From the IMG/VR virus record IMGVR_UViG_2690316068_000001, positions 1 to 64,000 of that record: a stretch of 64,000 nucleotides of DNA; one strand, written 5' to 3'. Both the position numbers and the translations under genes were made by a program. This DNA comes from a virus (taxonomy: Duplodnaviria > Heunggongvirae > Uroviricota > Caudoviricetes). The notes beneath the pieces are model-generated. The model was not told the DNA's origin. It ran no database searches and saw only the letters and a program-made list of their open reading frames with translations. Shown piece after piece: positions 20,100 to 62,056 of this stretch (the first letter of the stretch is position 1; each line of letters starts with the position of its first letter).

Positions 20100-20158
20100 T
20101 AGATTGCTCTAATCTGGAGTCACCTGGCGTTTTCAGTTTGAGGTCGGAGATGCAATCT

Positions 20159-20395
20159 GATTTTTTACAGTTAGCGATCGCTTTTGCAGGATATGTTTGT
20201 ATTGGCTTCTGTGTATACATGATCAGCCGAAAAATGCTTGTCGATATCGACCGCAAAGAACGAGCAGAGGAGATCTTAGTATGGATTTTCTTTGGCGCGG
20301 TCTGGCCATTAGGGATCATGTTTGCTGCAACATTTCTTCTGATGTGGATATTCACCCTTCCAGGTGATTTCTATAGAAAAAAAGCCAGACATTGA
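20159..20395 (+). CDS. Small membrane protein
   Basis: ORF-track frame 20069-20395; internal ATG at 20159 gives ~78 aa with two hydrophobic segments. Confidence 0.45.
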   Translation, partial: DFLQLAIAFAGYVCIGFCVYMISRKMLVDIDRKERAEEILVWIFFGAVWPLGIMFAATFLLMWIFTLPGDFYRKKARH

Positions 20396-20518
20396 TACAA
20401 TCGTTGCGGGTGCTTGAGGCTATCTGCTTCAGGCATTACCCGAAAAGCAGATAGAAGAAAGCCCCAGATAACATTACGCGTCCTGCAAGACGCTTAACAT
20501 TAATCTGAGGCCATATCT

Positions 20519-20725
20519 ATGCTTAGCATACGTAGATTAGCCTCTTACCGACCAAAAGGTCAAGGAGAAGCAGGCTATGAAGCAGCAAAAAGCGATGTTA
20601 ATCGCTCTGATCGTCATCTGTTTAACCGTCATTGTGACGGCACTGGTAACGAGGAAAGACCTCTGCGAGGTACGAATCCGAACCGGCCAGACGGAGGTCA
20701 CTGTCTTCACAGCCTACGAATCTGA
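20519..20725 (+). CDS. mok: Mok-like overlapping reading frame
   Basis: 68-aa ORF in another frame, almost fully overlapping the hok-like ORF, as in hok/sok loci. Confidence 0.45.
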   Translation: MLSIRRLASYRPKGQGEAGYEAAKSDVNRSDRHLFNRHCDGTGNEERPLRGTNPNRPDGGHCLHSLRI

Positions 20726-20732
20726 AAGGTAA
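20577..20732 (+). CDS. hok: Hok/Gef-family type I toxin (51 aa)
   Basis: MKQQKAMLIALIVICLTVIVTALVTRKDLCEVRIRTGQTEVTVFTAYESER is a close match to Gef/HokC-type toxins; SD aggaga upstream; below ORF-track size cut-off. Confidence 0.8.
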   Translation: MKQQKAMLIALIVICLTVIVTALVTRKDLCEVRIRTGQTEVTVFTAYESER

Positions 20733-20804
20733 GAGACCTGGCGGGGAGAGATCCTCGCCACTCTTCGTGTGTCAGGTATCCTCAATGCACCCTTTCCTCT
20801 CCAA

Positions 20805-20834
20805 ATAAAAAAGCTCCCGAAGGAGCTTTAAAAT
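20805..20834. terminator. Bidirectional rho-independent terminator
   Basis: aaaaaagctcccgaaggagctttaaaat between convergent transcription units. Confidence 0.65.
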
Positions 20835-20848
20835 ACAAGGGATGACTC

Positions 20849-36518: not shown

Positions 36519-36525
36519 TAAATTT
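36509..36525 (+). promoter_or_regulatory. C1-operator-like 17-mer (attgctctaataaattt) overlapping dmt stop
   Basis: Perfect consensus match; upstream of tRNA/tci/ban cluster. Confidence 0.6.
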
Positions 36526-36699
36526 ATTAGTGTAATATCGCCTCAATGAATCGTGATTTATAGAGCGATTTAGCTGTTAGCCGCGACAGGCGCGGCGGTA
36601 AGCATGGCTGGGCCTAGTCCTCCCAGACAAACCACCGAGTTGCCAGGTTGACCATGCGCCTAAGTGGCAACTCCGAAGTGCGTTACGAGCTTCCAGTTT

Positions 36700-36727
36700 G
36701 CCCATCTTCGGGTGGGCGTTTTTTTTC
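36700..36727 (+). terminator. Hairpin plus T8 run (terminator/attenuator-like)
   Basis: gcccatcttcgggtgggc followed by gtttttttt. Confidence 0.45.
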
Positions 36728-36908
36728 AGGGTTTTCGTCATGGTTAGCGACTTTGCGGCGGTTTAGAAACTGACCATTAAAGTAAATGCAAACGATGATC
36801 TGATGATGGTAGCGGCCTAAGAAGCCAGACGCCACGGGGTATGAGTCGTCCCCCGTCAAAAAATCGACCGCAGAGTGTCCCCGTCTGTGTATTAGGGAAC
36901 GGGGAGAC

Positions 36909-36997
36909 ACAACAGGTAAGGGCGCTGGTGTGATTAACCAGATGAACGAGAAGGGGCCATCTGTTGGTCAGCGTCCTTTCCTGTTGCGTTTTCTTTT
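36909..36997 (+). repeat. Hairpin family unit 1 (ACAACAGGTAAGGG… stem, 3-prime arm …CCTTTCCTGTTGCG, then T-rich run)
   Basis: Shares 5-prime arm sequence with units at 37348, 37563, 38046. Confidence 0.5.
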
Positions 36998-37191
36998 CAG
37001 CGTAACAGCGGTGCTTAACAGCACTTTGGGTACAGTTCCACGAATTTACGGGTATATCCCGTCATGCTGAAAGCGCTAATCACGCTGGAAGCCAGGGTTA
37101 TGCATCCCCTGTTACCGAATTGCAGCCAGGGCGCGGTGCGCCGAAAAGCATACGGAGGTGGAAGCCCTCGCCGGAGACGTACCCGGCAAGT

Positions 37192-37267
37192 GATGGTGTA
37201 GCTCAGCGGTTAGAGCGGTTGACTGTTAATCAACGGGTCGATGGTTCAAATCCATCCACCATCGCCA
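37192..37267 (+). tRNA. tRNA-Asn (anticodon GTT)
   Basis: Cloverleaf: acceptor gatggtg/caccatc, anticodon loop ctGTTaa at 37225-37227, T-loop ggttcaaatcc, encoded CCA. Confidence 0.85.
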
Positions 37268-37269
37268 AT

Positions 37270-37345
37270 GCCGGTTTAGCTCAGTTGGTAGAGCGCCTGC
37301 CTTGTAAGCAGGATGTCAGCGGTTCGAGTCCGTTAATCGGCACCA
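37270..37345 (+). tRNA. tRNA-Thr (anticodon TGT)
   Basis: gccggtttagctcagttggtagagc…cttGTaa (anticodon 37313-37315)…ggttcgagtcc…cacca. Confidence 0.85.
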
Positions 37346-37347
37346 GC

Positions 37348-37454
37348 ACAACAGGTAAGGGTATTTTGCGACGTCGGAGATCGCCGAGCTTGGCAGAGGG
37401 TTCGAATCCCTACGAAGTACCCTTACCGTTGTGATGAATGCGCAGGCTGATGCG
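37348..37454 (+). repeat. Hairpin family unit 2; loop contains a tRNA T-arm-like GGTTCGAATCC
   Basis: 5-prime arm acaacaggtaagggta pairs with tacccttaccgttgtg; conserved 3-prime tail GATGAATGCGCAGGCTGATG. Confidence 0.5.
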
Positions 37455-37562
37455 CGAAAGACATTGCAGCTATTGCGGAAAAGAGCTGTTCGGCGGGGCA
37501 ATTAAACGCCCGTGAGAGTCTGAAATAACCGCAAGCCGGAGATCAGCACCGGTCATCACAAC

Positions 37563-58202: not shown

Positions 58203-59116
58203 CCAGAATCACTGAAGAGCGTATATCAGAGATTATTTCCCGTATCGAAATGTATGGTCACGGTGCTGGATATACGGCAGATGAAGTATTGGCACTTGCC
58301 CAAATGGTTTTGGCGGCTTGCAAAGATGATAAAAAAATGAAGTTTATCGACTTGTTAGTGAAGGAGCTGCCTAAGTGCGGCGGGTGGCCTGATGGAATGA
58401 GTTATTGTTACCTACCCAGTGTCAATTTAATGGCACCATGCGCGACTTTTGCTTTTGGCTCAGACCACAAAAAAGACACTTTCTTTGGGCGCAATTTTTG
58501 TTGTGATATTGAGCTTCCAATTGGTGACCTTGATAGCGATGAATACCAGTCAGTTGTCACTCGCGAACAATACGAATCAGCTCTCATAGCGTCGCAGAAA
58601 GTCGAGTTCAATGGTGATGAACTTGAAAGTAAGACTTACAGGTTGGATTTTGGGCAATGGCTGGAACAGCAACGCGGGAAAATCGATGTGGACTGTGGTT
58701 GTGTGTCCACTGAAACATTCATGCACTGGCTGCGGGTAGCTTACGAGGCTGGCAACTATCCGGATATTCCGGATAGTTCGGTGCCAGCGCCAGGAAAGGG
58801 CGTCACCGGTGAACGTATCCGCATTAAGCCGCATGTTTATCGCGAACTGGTTAACCGTCTCCACGATACAGCGATCAAGTGTGCTGGCACCCAGCAATTA
58901 CGAGAAAGAATTAGCCGTGTTTTGGGCGACGTTATTACGCCATATCATCATAAACAAGCCGAGAAAAGCGGTCTGGAAAGGTGTCATCTTGAGGCAGTAT
59001 TAAACATTAAGCCGGGGCATACGCTTGGCATTATTGATGCACTGTTGGTTCATAAGATGGCCATGGCTTTATTGTCGTTGGTGGACGCTGGTGATACAAG
59101 CGAGGGTGAAGTATGA
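58184..59116 (+). CDS. Hypothetical protein
   Basis: 310-aa ORF. Confidence 0.4.
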   Translation: MAQKEMTRITEERISEIISRIEMYGHGAGYTADEVLALAQMVLAACKDDKKMKFIDLLVKELPKCGGWPDGMSYCYLPSVNLMAPCATFAFGSDHKKDTFFGRNFCCDIELPIGDLDSDEYQSVVTREQYESALIASQKVEFNGDELESKTYRLDFGQWLEQQRGKIDVDCGCVSTETFMHWLRVAYEAGNYPDIPDSSVPAPGKGVTGERIRIKPHVYRELVNRLHDTAIKCAGTQQLRERISRVLGDVITPYHHKQAEKSGLERCHLEAVLNIKPGHTLGIIDALLVHKMAMALLSLVDAGDTSEGEV

Positions 59117-59475
59117 GAGTTGCAGATCACATCAAACACCTTGAAAGAATTATCGAAAACGGTGAACTCTTAAGAGATCAGATGAGACGCACGGCAGAAG
59201 CCAGGGAGGCGATAATCCGCAGTCAGGCTGGTAAATTAAAGCAATTGTCAGAGATTAACACGCTATACAAGAACAGACGTAACCGGGCGGTGATGCGGCT
59301 TCAGAAAGCACGTAATGAAATTAAATTGGTGGAGGCAAAACTGAAAAAACAGATCCAGCGTTACGATCAGCAAGATGCTTTTTATGCCGCCATCAAGGCG
59401 GCTGCTAATGAAATAGGCATCTGGAAGTTGCTGGTGGAGAAAGCAAAGACGAAGTTAAATGCCAACGAAAGCTGA
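59113..59475 (+). CDS. Coiled-coil protein
   Basis: 120-aa ORF. Confidence 0.4.
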   Translation: MRVADHIKHLERIIENGELLRDQMRRTAEAREAIIRSQAGKLKQLSEINTLYKNRRNRAVMRLQKARNEIKLVEAKLKKQIQRYDQQDAFYAAIKAAANEIGIWKLLVEKAKTKLNANES

Positions 59476-59550
59476 ACTACAGGTGCCCACCAGCACATAC
59501 AGAAAATGATTGTTTCCACATCAAGGAGATTTTAATGTTTCACTGAAACA

Positions 59551-59688
59551 TTAAGTAAGCCAGTGCATAATTCCATTTTTTACTGACCTTAAAAGCAAAA
59601 TCAAAACGATGATGAGGATAATAGCCAGAATCTGGCTAATAATAGGCGCATCTAAAAATGCACTCAGGAACTGAAAAAAAGCGTTCAT
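59551..59688 (-). CDS. Small hydrophobic peptide (45 aa), candidate membrane toxin/exclusion peptide
   Basis: MNAFFQFLSAFLDAPIISQILAIILIIVLILLLRSVKNGIMHWLT; SD aggaaccacc; lies in ~1 kb AT-rich stretch without long ORFs; below ORF-track cut-off. Confidence 0.35.
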   Translation of the reverse strand: MNAFFQFLSAFLDAPIISQILAIILIIVLILLLRSVKNGIMHWLT

Positions 59689-60550
59689 TCAGGTGGTTCC
59701 TTGTCAAATGTAAAGGTGCACTTGCTCACGTTGACGTAGAAACCCAACCCCTATATAGTTGGATTCGGTGAATGAAAGTCGTTAACGTGAGCTTACGGCA
59801 CATGTTTTCGGAAAAACATCAGGGAACGGCTAATTCCTTGATGCGGGTGGGGTCTGTAATGCAGACCCTATCTATTAACGTCATGATTGCATCTCAAATT
59901 TTCTCCTTATCTTCAATTAATCTACATTCATTTCATCTGTTAGCCACCACAATATGTAGAAAATGGCCCTCTTGCAAGTGCATAACTTTGTGGATAACTC
60001 AGGAAGGAAAAAGTGGCTTTCGCGCACCTTCGGTCAGACAAGGTGTCCGGGAAAGTCAACGCAAAGAAAAAAATTGTTAAAAATAACGTTTGTTGGAATT
60101 GTATATTTCTATCCCCTTCAATGGTTAGCATTCTATTAACATCTTTTTTTAGAGACAGAAAAACATATCGTAACAACATATATACAGTATTAAGAGGCGA
60201 GTATTATCCTGCGGTGGGAATTCTGGGTGCTGTTAGATTCGACTTTCTCAGCAGGATTACATCGTCAACTTGCGACGTTGCCGTATGACTTTCGTGTAAT
60301 AGGTGACAATGATGCGGCTAGTGAGTTACTTGTGAAGTTTTTCGGAAAAGGTTTTGTGGCCTCGGATCTTGATGAGCTACAGCAACATGAAGTGTCTAAT
60401 TTGATTTTTAGCCATAGCCAATAAGCCTCCCTCCTCCATCAAGGCCACAATTTGTGACCTTAAACAATTTGTTTTCTGCTTTTTCTTATTTGAGGAAATA
60501 ACGTTGTTGACAGCTAATAGGCTCGTTGTTGTTATACATGCCTGTATAGA

Positions 60551-60907
60551 TTATGACCGTAAATTATTAGCGGATTTTAAGCCATATTCACCGTTGTAGA
60601 AATTACTCATGTTCCATTCATTAGGAAGTTCTTTTCTGTCCAATGTATAGTGGCGCACGATATAACGATCTTCATCTTCTTCGATGGACAGGCGGACATA
60701 GCCAATGTGAATCACCGATACGGGCGGTGTTCGTATTGCATAGATGTCGCGGAGATATACCGGCAGCTCGACAAATGCATCAGGTGCATCTGTGATGCTC
60801 GTTTTTTCACAGTATTCATATAACGCATCGTTGATATCGTTAAGAGATTCATGATCGTATATTTCCAGGTAATTACCGCGATCACGATGGTACTCGATTT
60901 TAGCCAT
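60551..60907 (-). CDS. Hypothetical protein (AT-rich gene)
   Basis: 118-aa ORF; abuts the upstream ORF stop. Confidence 0.45.
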   Translation of the reverse strand: MAKIEYHRDRGNYLEIYDHESLNDINDALYEYCEKTSITDAPDAFVELPVYLRDIYAIRTPPVSVIHIGYVRLSIEEDEDRYIVRHYTLDRKELPNEWNMSNFYNGEYGLKSANNLRS

Positions 60908-61492
60908 TCAAAATCCCCTGTTATCGTTTTGCATTTCTCTAATCCGGTTCAGAACTACTTCGTGCTGGACTTGGATAGCGGCTTTTTCGTTTTCAAGCCG
61001 GGCAATAGACATCTCTAATTCTTTGCTGTACCAGGCGAGCTGGGCCAGGTTCATCCGGTTGTGGTCGAGAGTTGGAGACACTTCGACGCGATCCCTTTCT
61101 TCCTGCTTTAATGAGAAGAGATTTATCTCATCCCTTGAGGAAAATTCAGCAACAATTTCTTGTTGATGATCCGGTCGCTGCGGCATCCTCGCCAGTATAA
61201 ATGGCGGTTCTTTTGAAAACATGAATGTCGGTTCAGACCGTGTTTTTACCCAGCTTGCCTGCTGTCTTTCGGCAAGTTCACAGGCTTCATCATAGTTATC
61301 TGCCAAACAAAGCACGGATGGACGGTCCCACGCCCCACCATTCAGACAATAAACTACAATTTTCCCGTCAGGTTGTGTAACCCCATATGGATGGTCCCAC
61401 CAGGCGTCCAGCTGAGCTTTAGAGCGTTTCTCGTTAGGAGTGCAGTCAAAATTTTTGGGCAATACAGGATCGAGAGGAATGCGATTAGGCAT
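60908..61492 (-). CDS. Hypothetical protein with C-terminal coiled coil (AT-rich gene)
   Basis: 194-aa ORF divergent from humD. Confidence 0.45.
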   Translation of the reverse strand: MPNRIPLDPVLPKNFDCTPNEKRSKAQLDAWWDHPYGVTQPDGKIVVYCLNGGAWDRPSVLCLADNYDEACELAERQQASWVKTRSEPTFMFSKEPPFILARMPQRPDHQQEIVAEFSSRDEINLFSLKQEERDRVEVSPTLDHNRMNLAQLAWYSKELEMSIARLENEKAAIQVQHEVVLNRIREMQNDNRGF

Positions 61493-61627
61493 AGCTAATT
61501 CCTTATTAACTGATTGGCAACGAGGTTACGCTGATCCGTTGGTGATGAATAGTAGCAAAGAGCACAAAATCATCAGCGGTGGTTGATGTACGTAACGCGT
61601 TTGCACCAAAGGTGTCTCTTTAATGTA

Positions 61628-61647
61628 TACTGTATAAATGAACAGTA
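61628..61647 (+). promoter_or_regulatory. LexA (SOS) box
   Basis: tactgtataaatgaacagta = CTGT-N8-ACAG, 20 bp upstream of humD start. Confidence 0.8.
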
Positions 61648-61666
61648 TTATTGAGGTGAAAACGCT

Positions 61667-62056
61667 ATGGGCTTCCCTTCTCCTGCGGCGGATTATGTTG
61701 AAAGCCGAATTTCTCTTGATCAGCAACTAATCAGGCATCCATCAGCAACCTACTTCATGCGGGCAGCTGATAGCCATCACCGTGAGGGAATATTGCAGGG
61801 TGCTTTGCTGGTGGTTGATTCCTCGCTTACTCCGGTTGATGGTTCTCTGCTTGTGTGCGCTATGGAGGGTGAATATCGCATAAAGAGATACAGGAAGTAT
61901 CCGCGCCAGCACCTGGAGGATTTAAGCACCGGGAAGAAAGAGGCGTTACCAGTAGATGACGATGGATGCACGGGCAGTAATGCTGTTTTTGGTGTGATCA
62001 CTCATGTCATCAATGATGCCCGAAGTGGGGAGTTTGATGATTGTCCGGTTATTTAA
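61667..62056 (+). CDS. humD: UmuD-like protein (processed UmuD-prime-type, no LexA-like cleavage region)
   Basis: 129 aa; S24 peptidase-like fold motifs (…GDSM-equivalent region, LVVDSSLTPVDGSLLV…). Confidence 0.75.
   Translation: MGFPSPAADYVESRISLDQQLIRHPSATYFMRAADSHHREGILQGALLVVDSSLTPVDGSLLVCAMEGEYRIKRYRKYPRQHLEDLSTGKKEALPVDDDGCTGSNAVFGVITHVINDARSGEFDDCPVI

Follow-up and report, generated by a model that had tools for sequence, protein, structure and literature searches.

Type I toxin-antitoxin loci pair a small hydrophobic peptide with a regulatory RNA. In hok/sok of plasmid R1 (related to pnd, srnB and flm), a hydrophobic toxin of about 50 amino acids (aa) is encoded on a plasmid-type replicon, and the antisense RNA gene lies inside the leader of the toxin mRNA, with a strong promoter of its own. 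The toxin mRNA is compact, its 5′ end is paired to the 3′ tail, its Shine-Dalgarno (SD) sequence is sequestered, and the antisense RNA presents an unpaired 5′ tail to an accessible target loop. The loci tisB/istR-1, dinQ/agrB and zorO/orzO have a long toxin 5′ leader, and their small RNAs, divergently encoded and of short complementarity, act a long way upstream of the toxin ribosome-binding site, by standby-site logic; transcription of tisB and dinQ is tied to DNA-related stress via LexA. A cis-encoded, fully complementary antitoxin RNA and a very small hydrophobic toxin characterize ldr/rdl and ibs/sib, which are chromosomal multi-copy repeats. Could a locus of this kind exist in P1, which is among the most studied phages and whose P1-like phage-plasmid relatives have phd-doc as their only recognised addiction module? 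Here we analyze a stretch of 64,000 nucleotides (nt), hereafter the window, which comprises positions 1 to 64,000 of IMG/VR virus record IMGVR_UViG_2690316068_000001 and belongs to a P1/P7/SJ46-type phage-plasmid. In it, the left ~620 bp (~59485-60100) of an AT-rich islet devoid of long open reading frames (ORFs) may be a self-contained type I toxin-antitoxin-like cassette, accessory cargo of some P1-like phage-plasmids. We put the probability of this reading, which is drawn from sequence, at roughly 45%.

How does the cassette compare with these systems? Its layout matches that of a type I locus, because a promoter is followed by a structured leader and a small hydrophobic ORF, and a strongly promoted gene for a predicted stable antisense RNA lies inside the leader. 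Like hok/sok, it combines a plasmid-type replicon and a hydrophobic peptide of similar size with an antisense RNA gene in the mRNA leader. Predicted folds give it a compact mRNA with paired ends and a sequestered SD sequence, and an antisense RNA whose unpaired 5′ tail faces a target loop. Unlike hok/sok, it has no mok-like frame overlapping the toxin start: the upstream ORFs (uORFs) at 59884-59819 and 59803-59726 end at least 38 nt before the peptide ATG (59688). The antisense RNA would pair ~80-190 nt upstream of the toxin start codon, and in the alleles of the window and of P1 its fold-back helix has little strength. The long leader and a small RNA far upstream of the ribosome-binding site recall tisB/istR-1, dinQ/agrB and zorO/orzO. 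In contrast to these, the overlap in the cassette is complete (~110 nt), there is no LexA box but the DnaA boxes of a captured nrdA promoter, and neither peptide nor RNA shows sequence similarity. With ldr/rdl and ibs/sib it shares a fully complementary cis-encoded RNA and a very small hydrophobic product, but it is single-copy in the window, confined to P1-like elements and without sequence or Rfam similarity to either.

The peptide matches no known family. In Pfam it returned only a chance-level match to ASFV_J13L (E 0.25) and no Hok/Gef, in NCBIfam and PADLOC no family, and in PHROG a best E of 0.058. An Rfam cmscan of 58500-62000, run with an E cut-off of 10, showed no antitoxin family of type I, Sok included; BsrG, the sole toxin-related line, scored 15 bits where the gathering score is 55. 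The cassette is functionally closest to the plasmid hok/sok design and is not a member of any of the compared families, since the searches for their protein and RNA families, for a mok-like frame and for a LexA box all came back negative. The original prediction for this islet, a small transmembrane (TM) peptide that could be a type I toxin paired with a regulatory RNA, fits the anatomy of a 45-codon hydrophobic ORF, a predicted convergent antisense RNA and an nrdA-like promoter; the right ~450 bp of the islet are unrelated to the peptide.

The peptide ORF itself, a minus-strand frame of 45 codons at 59551-59688 for which a plausible SD sequence had been proposed, is confirmed, with an ATG start and AAGGA at 9 nt. 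Residues 16-33 have a mean Kyte-Doolittle value of 3.4 (2.8 in the divergent allele) and are followed by a short basic C-terminal tail; by sequence, the product would be a small (<~60 aa) hydrophobic membrane-targeted protein. BLAST against plasmids found the left half of the islet at full length in 229 records from Escherichia, Salmonella and Shigella, mostly non-mobilisable P1-like, which fall into three identity tiers: ~100% (P7/SJ46 type), ~95-98% (P1 type) and ~78% (the L004 clade). In all three the ORF has exactly 45 codons, with the same ATG and stop positions and an SD sequence, and among the cassette ORFs of 30 aa or more it is the sole one conserved across all lineages. It is intact in 70/70 related loci and 53/53 IMG/VR loci. 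In the L004 clade the peptide is 59% identical and the 138 nt contain no indel, whereas the flanking spacers do, and the SD sequence is conserved within a poorly conserved spacer (62%). The ratio of non-synonymous to synonymous change (NG86 omega) is 0.41. In simulations the frame stays open by chance in 14% of cases, and in 9% of those the hydrophobicity is as high as observed, so that openness, length and hydrophobicity have a joint chance of ~1%. What seems to be kept is an open hydrophobic frame of a given length, not an exact sequence; this is common among single-TM toxins and is weak proof of a gene.

Frameshifts or stops in close relatives had been named as a sign against the peptide. 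The ORF is open, and its product hydrophobic, in every related locus examined, but rare disrupted alleles exist in public protein sets: two independent IS1 insertions in two lineages, one other insertion and two frameshifts, all altered past the TM segment. In pNord122_1 (756-1584), IS1 follows codon 39 of a P1-type ORF, and independently it follows codon 36 of a divergent allele; in both IS1-disrupted alleles the tail is replaced by VMTPTY. A word-index search and an exhaustive phmmer search of 1.84 billion representatives recovered only P1-like alleles or disrupted versions of them. GTDB genomes gave no match to a degenerate pattern, an exact 20-mer scan was likewise negative, and scans of IMG/VR and metagenomes returned the same three sequence tiers only, three metagenome matches being chance 19-mers. 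Searches of the literature and of family models likewise gave no description of the peptide, the RNA or the cassette, and neither did annotation; the nrdA-like promoter and a DnaA box were already known to the original sequencers.

The peptide ORF is preceded by a captured host promoter. Positions 59952-60100 (~150 bp) share 91-95% identity with the nrdA upstream/ypaB region of every one of the 5426 complete Escherichia coli genomes, and relative to the shared region chromosomal nrdA lies on the same side and strand as the peptide ORF. Both DnaA boxes, the TTGCAA -35 element and the 17-nt spacer are almost unchanged in three phage lineages, which by sequence makes this an nrdAB-type promoter. 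The M95666 record already carries an 'nrdA-like promoter' and a 'dnaA box' at this place and on the same strand, both annotated by its depositors. The E. coli homology stops at the -10 element and start site, and the transcribed part is phage-specific. The nrdA promoter of E. coli has a functional NrdR operator, composed of boxes 1 and 2, on its downstream side (PMC12176259). Because the homology ends before these boxes, the phage copy keeps the DnaA boxes and has lost the NrdR operator; NrdR control of the cassette was rejected for the same reason, the functional boxes lying outside the captured piece. A consensus scan combined with inspection gave no other credible minus-strand promoter between the nrdA-like promoter and the ORF. 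In the P7/SJ46 lineage the nrdA copy resembles E. coli more closely than it does in P1, which suggests renewed gene conversion with the host.

Control by LexA, as for tisB, dinQ and symE of the SOS-regulated type I group, was also considered and rejected. As the original prediction had stated, no second LexA box exists here: 59480-60550 contains no perfect CTGT-N8-ACAG, only two one-mismatch matches without an AT-rich core, and the sole perfect box nearby is that at 61630-61645 before humD. The suggested link of the islet to humD and the SOS response finds no support; any stress input would go via the DnaA boxes, not LexA.

On the opposite strand, inside the leader, stands TTGACG-17-TATAGT, the best promoter-like site of the region. 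Promoter prediction on both strands had been proposed as a check, and it yields this plus-strand sigma-70-type promoter; on the minus strand, homology and annotation point to the nrdA-like one. An RNA from the plus-strand site would start at ~59763-59767 and end at a U-rich UAUCUAUU (59869-59876). Its predicted fold consists of an unpaired 5′ tail and three stem-loops, the last of which is GC-rich (core 59849-59856 / 59862-59869) and followed by UAUCUAUU. The minimum free energy (MFE) is -43.2 kcal/mol, compared with -26.4 ± 3.5 for shuffled sequences (z -4.87; 0/200 shuffles as stable), and the RNAalifold consensus has the same three helices. Differences between the clades lie mostly in loops and linkers: stem 2 has three loop changes and an untouched 10-bp stem, and the GC-rich last stem has one double change, U-A to C-G. 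Each of the three stems has G-U pairs, several in total, that on the opposite strand would turn into A-C mismatches, which favours a plus-strand RNA. Terminator prediction, the other check proposed, was partly borne out in that a GC-rich stem followed by U-rich UAUCUAUU is present, but the consensus scan made no terminator call for this RNA, since the weak U-tract is partly taken up by the extended stem. The predicted RNA is fully complementary to ~+66 to +177 of the predicted peptide mRNA leader; if both transcripts exist, this is automatic, since they come from opposite strands.

The -10 region of the plus-strand promoter (59745-59762, CCCCTATATAGTTGG) is similar to NrdR box 1 of E. coli nrdA (CCCCCTATATATAGTG). 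As an NrdR site, CCCCTATATAG was rejected: its palindromic core lacks 2 bp, ~180 nt separate it from the promoter, and it is probably non-functional.

The best-conserved DNA of the cassette is a ~190-bp block upstream of the peptide ORF, not the ORF. Between the window and the L004 clade, identity is 67% in the 3′ flank (59485-59550, with indels), 76% in the ORF (no indel) and 62% in the SD spacer, then 97.5% in 59726-59765, the best-conserved cassette block, and 88.5% in 59766-59877. It is 94% in 59878-59911 (32/34 positions), 71% in 59912-59948 and 87% in 59949-60003. For the neighbouring genes of the same lineages the values are 88% (hot) and 83% (lxr).

The peptide mRNA is predicted to start near 59942 and to have a leader of ~254 nt, which contains the predicted antisense RNA gene in its entirety. 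Folded from 59945 to 59500, it has an MFE of -122.3 kcal/mol (z -4.15 vs shuffles). In the MFE folds of the window, P1 and L004 alleles, the extreme 5′ end is always closed on a region ~50 nt past the stop codon, where UCAUUUUCUGU (59509-59499) of the 3′ tail pairs with the mRNA 5′ end; UCCUUGAUG (59527-59519) of the same tail is complementary to leader 59845-59837. In L004 the closing helix has 15 bp and -27.3 kcal/mol (p ~0.0005). Apparent compensatory changes in this helix were dismissed, as cognate and non-cognate pairings did not differ cleanly, and the fold-back is suggestive only. In local MFE folds the SD sequence is paired in every lineage, with different partners: codons 7-8 in the window and P1, and CCUUG just upstream of AUG in L004. 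The 13-nt internal loop of the long leader hairpin is exactly complementary to the 5′ tail that the antisense RNA leaves unpaired, which makes this loop a plausible nucleation site. Further upstream, the conserved leader block may be a ribosome loading or standby element; substitutions in its 21-codon uORF are mostly non-synonymous, and the frame is probably unconstrained as protein. The hairpin at the stop codon has changed in sequence across lineages, from U-A to C-G and from G-C to G-U, the latter pair working only on minus-strand RNA. It has no U-tract after it on either strand and may stabilise or terminate the mRNA 3′ end. Homology with the L004 clade begins at the predicted 3′ tail, though the left neighbours in L004 differ, and this sets the left edge of the cassette. 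In whole-mRNA alignments by MAFFT, the divergent clade was out of register at the mRNA 5′ end and at the stop hairpin.

Table 1. Features of the islet and its cassette (window coordinates; SD, Shine-Dalgarno; MFE, minimum free energy).
Feature	Position	Strand	Evidence and remarks
Copy of host nrdA promoter and upstream region	59949..60100	-	Identity to E. coli; depositor annotation
-10 element TATTGT	59954-59949	-	TACTGT in L004 clade
-35 element TTGCAA	59977-59972	-	17-nt spacer to -10
DnaA box TTATGCACT	59985-59977	-	Homologous to E. coli nrdA
DnaA box TTATCCACA	59997-59989	-	Homologous to E. coli nrdA
Conserved leader block	59878..59911	-	SD-like AAGGAG (59908-59903), 3-codon mini-ORF (AUG 59892-59890), overlapping 21-codon uORF (59884-59819)
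Predicted antisense small RNA, ~110 nt, candidate antitoxin	59763..59876	+	Fold, conservation, promoter
Sigma-70-type promoter TTGACG-17 nt-TATAGT	59731..59759	+	10/12 matches; identical to 'PupfN' of P1
Long leader hairpin	59724..59792	-	13-bp inverted repeat GCTCACGTTGACG / CGTTAACGTGAGC (59724-59736 / 59780-59792); encloses CCAAC/GUUGG hairpin
SD sequence AAGGA	59698..59702	-	9 nt before ATG; GAGGA at 8 nt in L004 clade
Peptide ORF, candidate toxin	59551..59688	-	45 aa, ATG start, single-pass hydrophobic, MNAFFQFLSAFLDAPIISQILAIILIIVLILLLRSVKNGIMHWLT
Perfect 11-bp hairpin from ORF stop codon	59532..59554	-	Inverted repeat, kept in all lineages
Predicted mRNA 3′ tail, cassette left edge	59485..59531	-	Alignment, MFE folds, inverted repeat
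3′ remnant of toprim/primase gene	60213..60477	+	Includes 65-aa ORF 60227-60424

How might such a cassette work? The sequence elements, their arrangement, the pattern of conservation and the stabilities of the folds were computed directly; from them we infer both transcripts with their ends, translation, toxicity, the mechanism of repression and the role. The nrdA promoter copy, with its -35, -10 and two DnaA boxes and no NrdR operator, would fire leftward near 59942 and yield an mRNA of ~450 nt, made up of the ~254-nt structured leader with a sequestered SD sequence, the 45-aa ORF (59688-59551) and a 3′ tail that would fold onto the 5′ end and leader. From the opposite strand, the strong, near-consensus sigma-70 promoter inside the leader would produce a three-hairpin RNA of ~110 nt, perfectly complementary to the leader. 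Pairing would probably nucleate between the unpaired 5′ tail of this RNA and the 13-nt internal loop of the mRNA, and would lead to cleavage of the duplex, to blocked ribosome loading on the leader or to both, so that the peptide is off while the prophage is present. A fall in the antisense RNA, for instance upon plasmid loss, or a boost of the nrdA-type promoter through a change in replication or DnaA, would allow the peptide to be made, to insert into the inner membrane and to arrest or kill the cell. The more ambitious proposal is that this is an unrecognised type I toxin-antitoxin family of the P1 group, whose hijacked nrdA promoter senses the status of the host replication initiator, not LexA/SOS, to time the release of a membrane toxin; we consider it possible, though doubtful.

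Several observations weigh against a toxin-antitoxin cassette. Between the clades 19/45 residues differ, where random substitution predicts 19.5, and the 33 nt differences are spread 12/8/13 over the codon positions with no third-position bias. Selection on the amino-acid sequence of the peptide is thus not demonstrable; openness, length and hydrophobicity alone look selected, and this weakly. As there are only two deep clades, the conservation arguments amount to about one pairwise comparison. Covariation in the antisense RNA is not significant (97/500 shuffles reach the observed score), and the RNA ends in a poor U-tract, UAUCUAUU, at which the scan called no terminator. The closing helix of the mRNA is unremarkable in the window (-12.8 kcal/mol, p 0.09) and weak in P1 (-8.7). 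The leader hairpin of the mRNA covers the plus-strand promoter and could equally explain its conservation. The region is a mosaic in which blocks of 71-100% identity alternate between lineages; some stretches reach 99-100%, which points to recent recombination, and the conserved RNA block could reflect such recombination and not selection. The annotated genes of the pmgT-humD segment are dispensable in lytic growth (PMC10695390). The cassette occurs in that segment and is itself missing from RCS47, D6 and plasmid NZ_CP031917, the slot of RCS47 and D6 holding a different gene, and for this reason we regard it as accessory cargo and not as P1 backbone. Finally, the P1 addiction study of Lehnherr et al. 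1993, the source of the M95666 sequence, reportedly mapped the stabilising activity of its 4.3-kb fragment, which includes this region, to phd-doc, which argues against a strong post-segregational killer in the cassette.

Does the plus-strand RNA have to be an antitoxin? It could instead be a trans-acting phage small RNA, or a leader or attenuator for plus-strand genes (hot in P1), with the ORF untranslated or irrelevant. The RNA block and its promoter are the best-conserved parts, the ORF being far less conserved and without constraint at the amino-acid level; the authors of the P1 record predicted the same promoter, as PupfN, reading toward upfN/upfO/hot; and the G-U pairs favour a structure on the plus strand. 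The lineage of the window, P7 and SJ46 nevertheless keeps the RNA block though hot is replaced, which leaves no downstream plus-strand gene to regulate. The RNA also lacks an Hfq-type terminator with a long U-tail, and an open hydrophobic ORF of fixed length with its SD sequence, the oriented nrdA-type promoter and the stop-codon hairpin would all become coincidences, so that we judge this explanation unlikely. Many enterobacterial small single-TM proteins are regulators and not toxins, and the peptide could likewise be a non-toxic membrane protein (a modulator, an exclusion factor or an aid to lysis) made from the nrdA-type promoter, the conserved block serving as its leader and no antisense RNA existing. 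Such a leader would account for the SD-like AAGGAG, the mini-ORF and the uORF in the conserved leader block, and its hairpin at 59724-59792, which spans the supposed plus-strand promoter, could explain the conservation found there. A 10/12 promoter together with a stable three-hairpin RNA that has a GC-rich stem and a U-rich run is, however, hard to obtain by accident, and within the mRNA the G-U pairs of its three stems would turn into A-C mismatches. The IS1 insertions and frameshifts, moreover, cluster in the C-terminal portion of the frame, and this in separate lineages, a pattern at least compatible with counter-selection of a harmful product. We regard a harmless membrane protein as quite improbable, the least likely of the explanations weighed here.

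Perhaps the islet has no function at all and is a recombination scar made up of host DNA, remnants of genes and targets for IS elements, its ORF open by chance and its conserved blocks recent recombination tracts. The pmgT-humD segment is one of eight regions of high variability among P1-like phage-plasmids (PMC9603915), with block-wise mosaicism evident and genes that are non-essential. The right half of the islet is demonstrably junk, a toprim remnant, and IS903 has inserted here in P7. The absence of the cassette from RCS47, D6 and other relatives, the 14% of simulations in which the frame stays open and the neutral-like turnover of residues all agree with this. Chance would, on the other hand, have had to retain jointly the ATG, the SD sequence, the stop position, the exact length, a sequence free of indels and TM-grade hydrophobicity (~1%), while the flanks diverge to 62-67% with indels. 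Both predicted RNAs are far more stable than their shuffles (z -4.9 and -4.2), two separate hairpins show compensatory changes, and the elements stand in the exact order and orientation that a type I locus needs. An inert scar seems improbable to us.

If real, the cassette adds a new toxin/RNA family, with an unusual borrowed promoter, to a kind of system that is well known, and does so in a model phage. On the more ambitious proposal, P1 would have, in addition to phd-doc, a second module for addiction, abortive infection or stress response. P1-like phage-plasmids are followed as carriers of resistance genes, and another toxin cassette under RNA control would matter for plasmid-prophage stability, for the behaviour of lysogens under replication stress and for annotation, in which the likely real genes (the 45-aa peptide and the small RNA) are mostly missing from the records. 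The captured nrdA promoter shows cleanly how a mobile element can borrow a regulatory region from its host and leave the repressor site behind. Should the cassette be inert, what remains is a better account of a variable stretch of junk.

Existing records annotate the islet differently. The peptide, described as unannotated in the original prediction, is indeed absent from the P1 and P7 GenBank records, but its P1-type allele corresponds to the RefSeq/PGAP hypothetical protein WP_000123562.1, called at 2571-2708 (-) in one plasmid record; a P7-type plasmid has no PGAP call at the ORF. The GenBank records annotate plus-strand ORFs instead, upfM/upfN/upfO in P1 and Upf91.3-91.7 in P7, and the predicted promoter 'PupfN' of the P1 record is the very site that we assign to the antisense RNA. 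As genes, upfM and upfN/Upf91.4 were rejected: the plus-strand ORFs are unconserved, and upfM and upfN have no counterpart in the L004 clade. The window ATG at 59772, which opens a plus-strand ORF, is AAG in P1 and L004, and a 1-nt indel shifts the frame. Judged from these alignments, upfM and upfN are probably not genes.

The islet as a whole extends over 59476-60550 (1075 bp) and is the longest stretch without an ORF of at least 110 aa in the 64-kb window. It has a GC content of 0.394, compared with 0.472 for the window, which places it at the 3rd percentile among 1071-bp windows; the description as an AT-rich, ORF-poor islet of ~1 kb is accurate in both respects. The accompanying statement that it has no long ORF is true for frames of at least 110 aa, but ORFs of 102, 91, 79 and 65 aa are present besides the 45-aa one, and several are annotated. 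The next-largest stretches by the same measure are 36519-37469 (951 bp), 20100-20848 (749 bp) and 38708-39337 (630 bp). ARAGORN found no tRNA or tmRNA. Together with its flanks, the islet matches Salmonella phage SJ46 at 100% identity, P7 at 99.7% and several 'P1' isolates at 99.6%, and classical P1 aligns to the left half alone, up to ~60027, at 96%. Compared across lineages, the islet is bipartite: the left ~59485-60100 is the cassette common to three P1-like lineages, and the right is unrelated DNA.

The right part of the islet is, by homology, debris unrelated to the peptide. It is made up of DNA from upstream of host nrdA and of what is left of the toprim/primase gene. Its 65-aa ORF matches phrog_17952 (E 1.7e-37) and phrog_849 'DNA primase' (E 4e-5). 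Positions 60213-60477 are 88% identical to the last 76 codons and downstream DNA of a 179-aa toprim gene in the same slot of NZ_CP031917, and the toprim/primase gene is complete in other P1-like plasmids. In P7, IS903 lies inside the islet (2898-3954 of its record, corresponding to about 60190-60200 of the window), and the window, of SJ46 type, has the uninterrupted version.

In the window the islet is flanked by pmgV (59113-59475, +) and Upf93.6; in P1 terms, it sits between pmgV and the hot/lxr/humD/phd/doc block. In the P7/SJ46 lineage, hot is replaced by the minus-strand Upf93.6 and Upf94.2. These two genes (118 aa and 194 aa, the latter a 'DNA-binding protein' in PGAP) occupy 60551-61492 (-) in place of P1 hot and lxr. 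They are located behind the LexA box shared with humD (61630-61645), and read-through from this SOS-controlled operon into the cassette is conceivable. An imperfect 22-nt direct repeat (77%; 59487-59508 / 59944-59965) brackets the transcribed part of the cassette, one copy lying in the mRNA 3′ tail and the other over the -10 and spacer of the nrdA-like promoter; it may be chance or a recombination footprint. In pYLPM7a, of the L004 clade, the left neighbour of the cassette is a type I restriction-modification system (1-2022), and the chromosomal genes apbC and metG follow humD (3943-5528), an unusual cargo arrangement.

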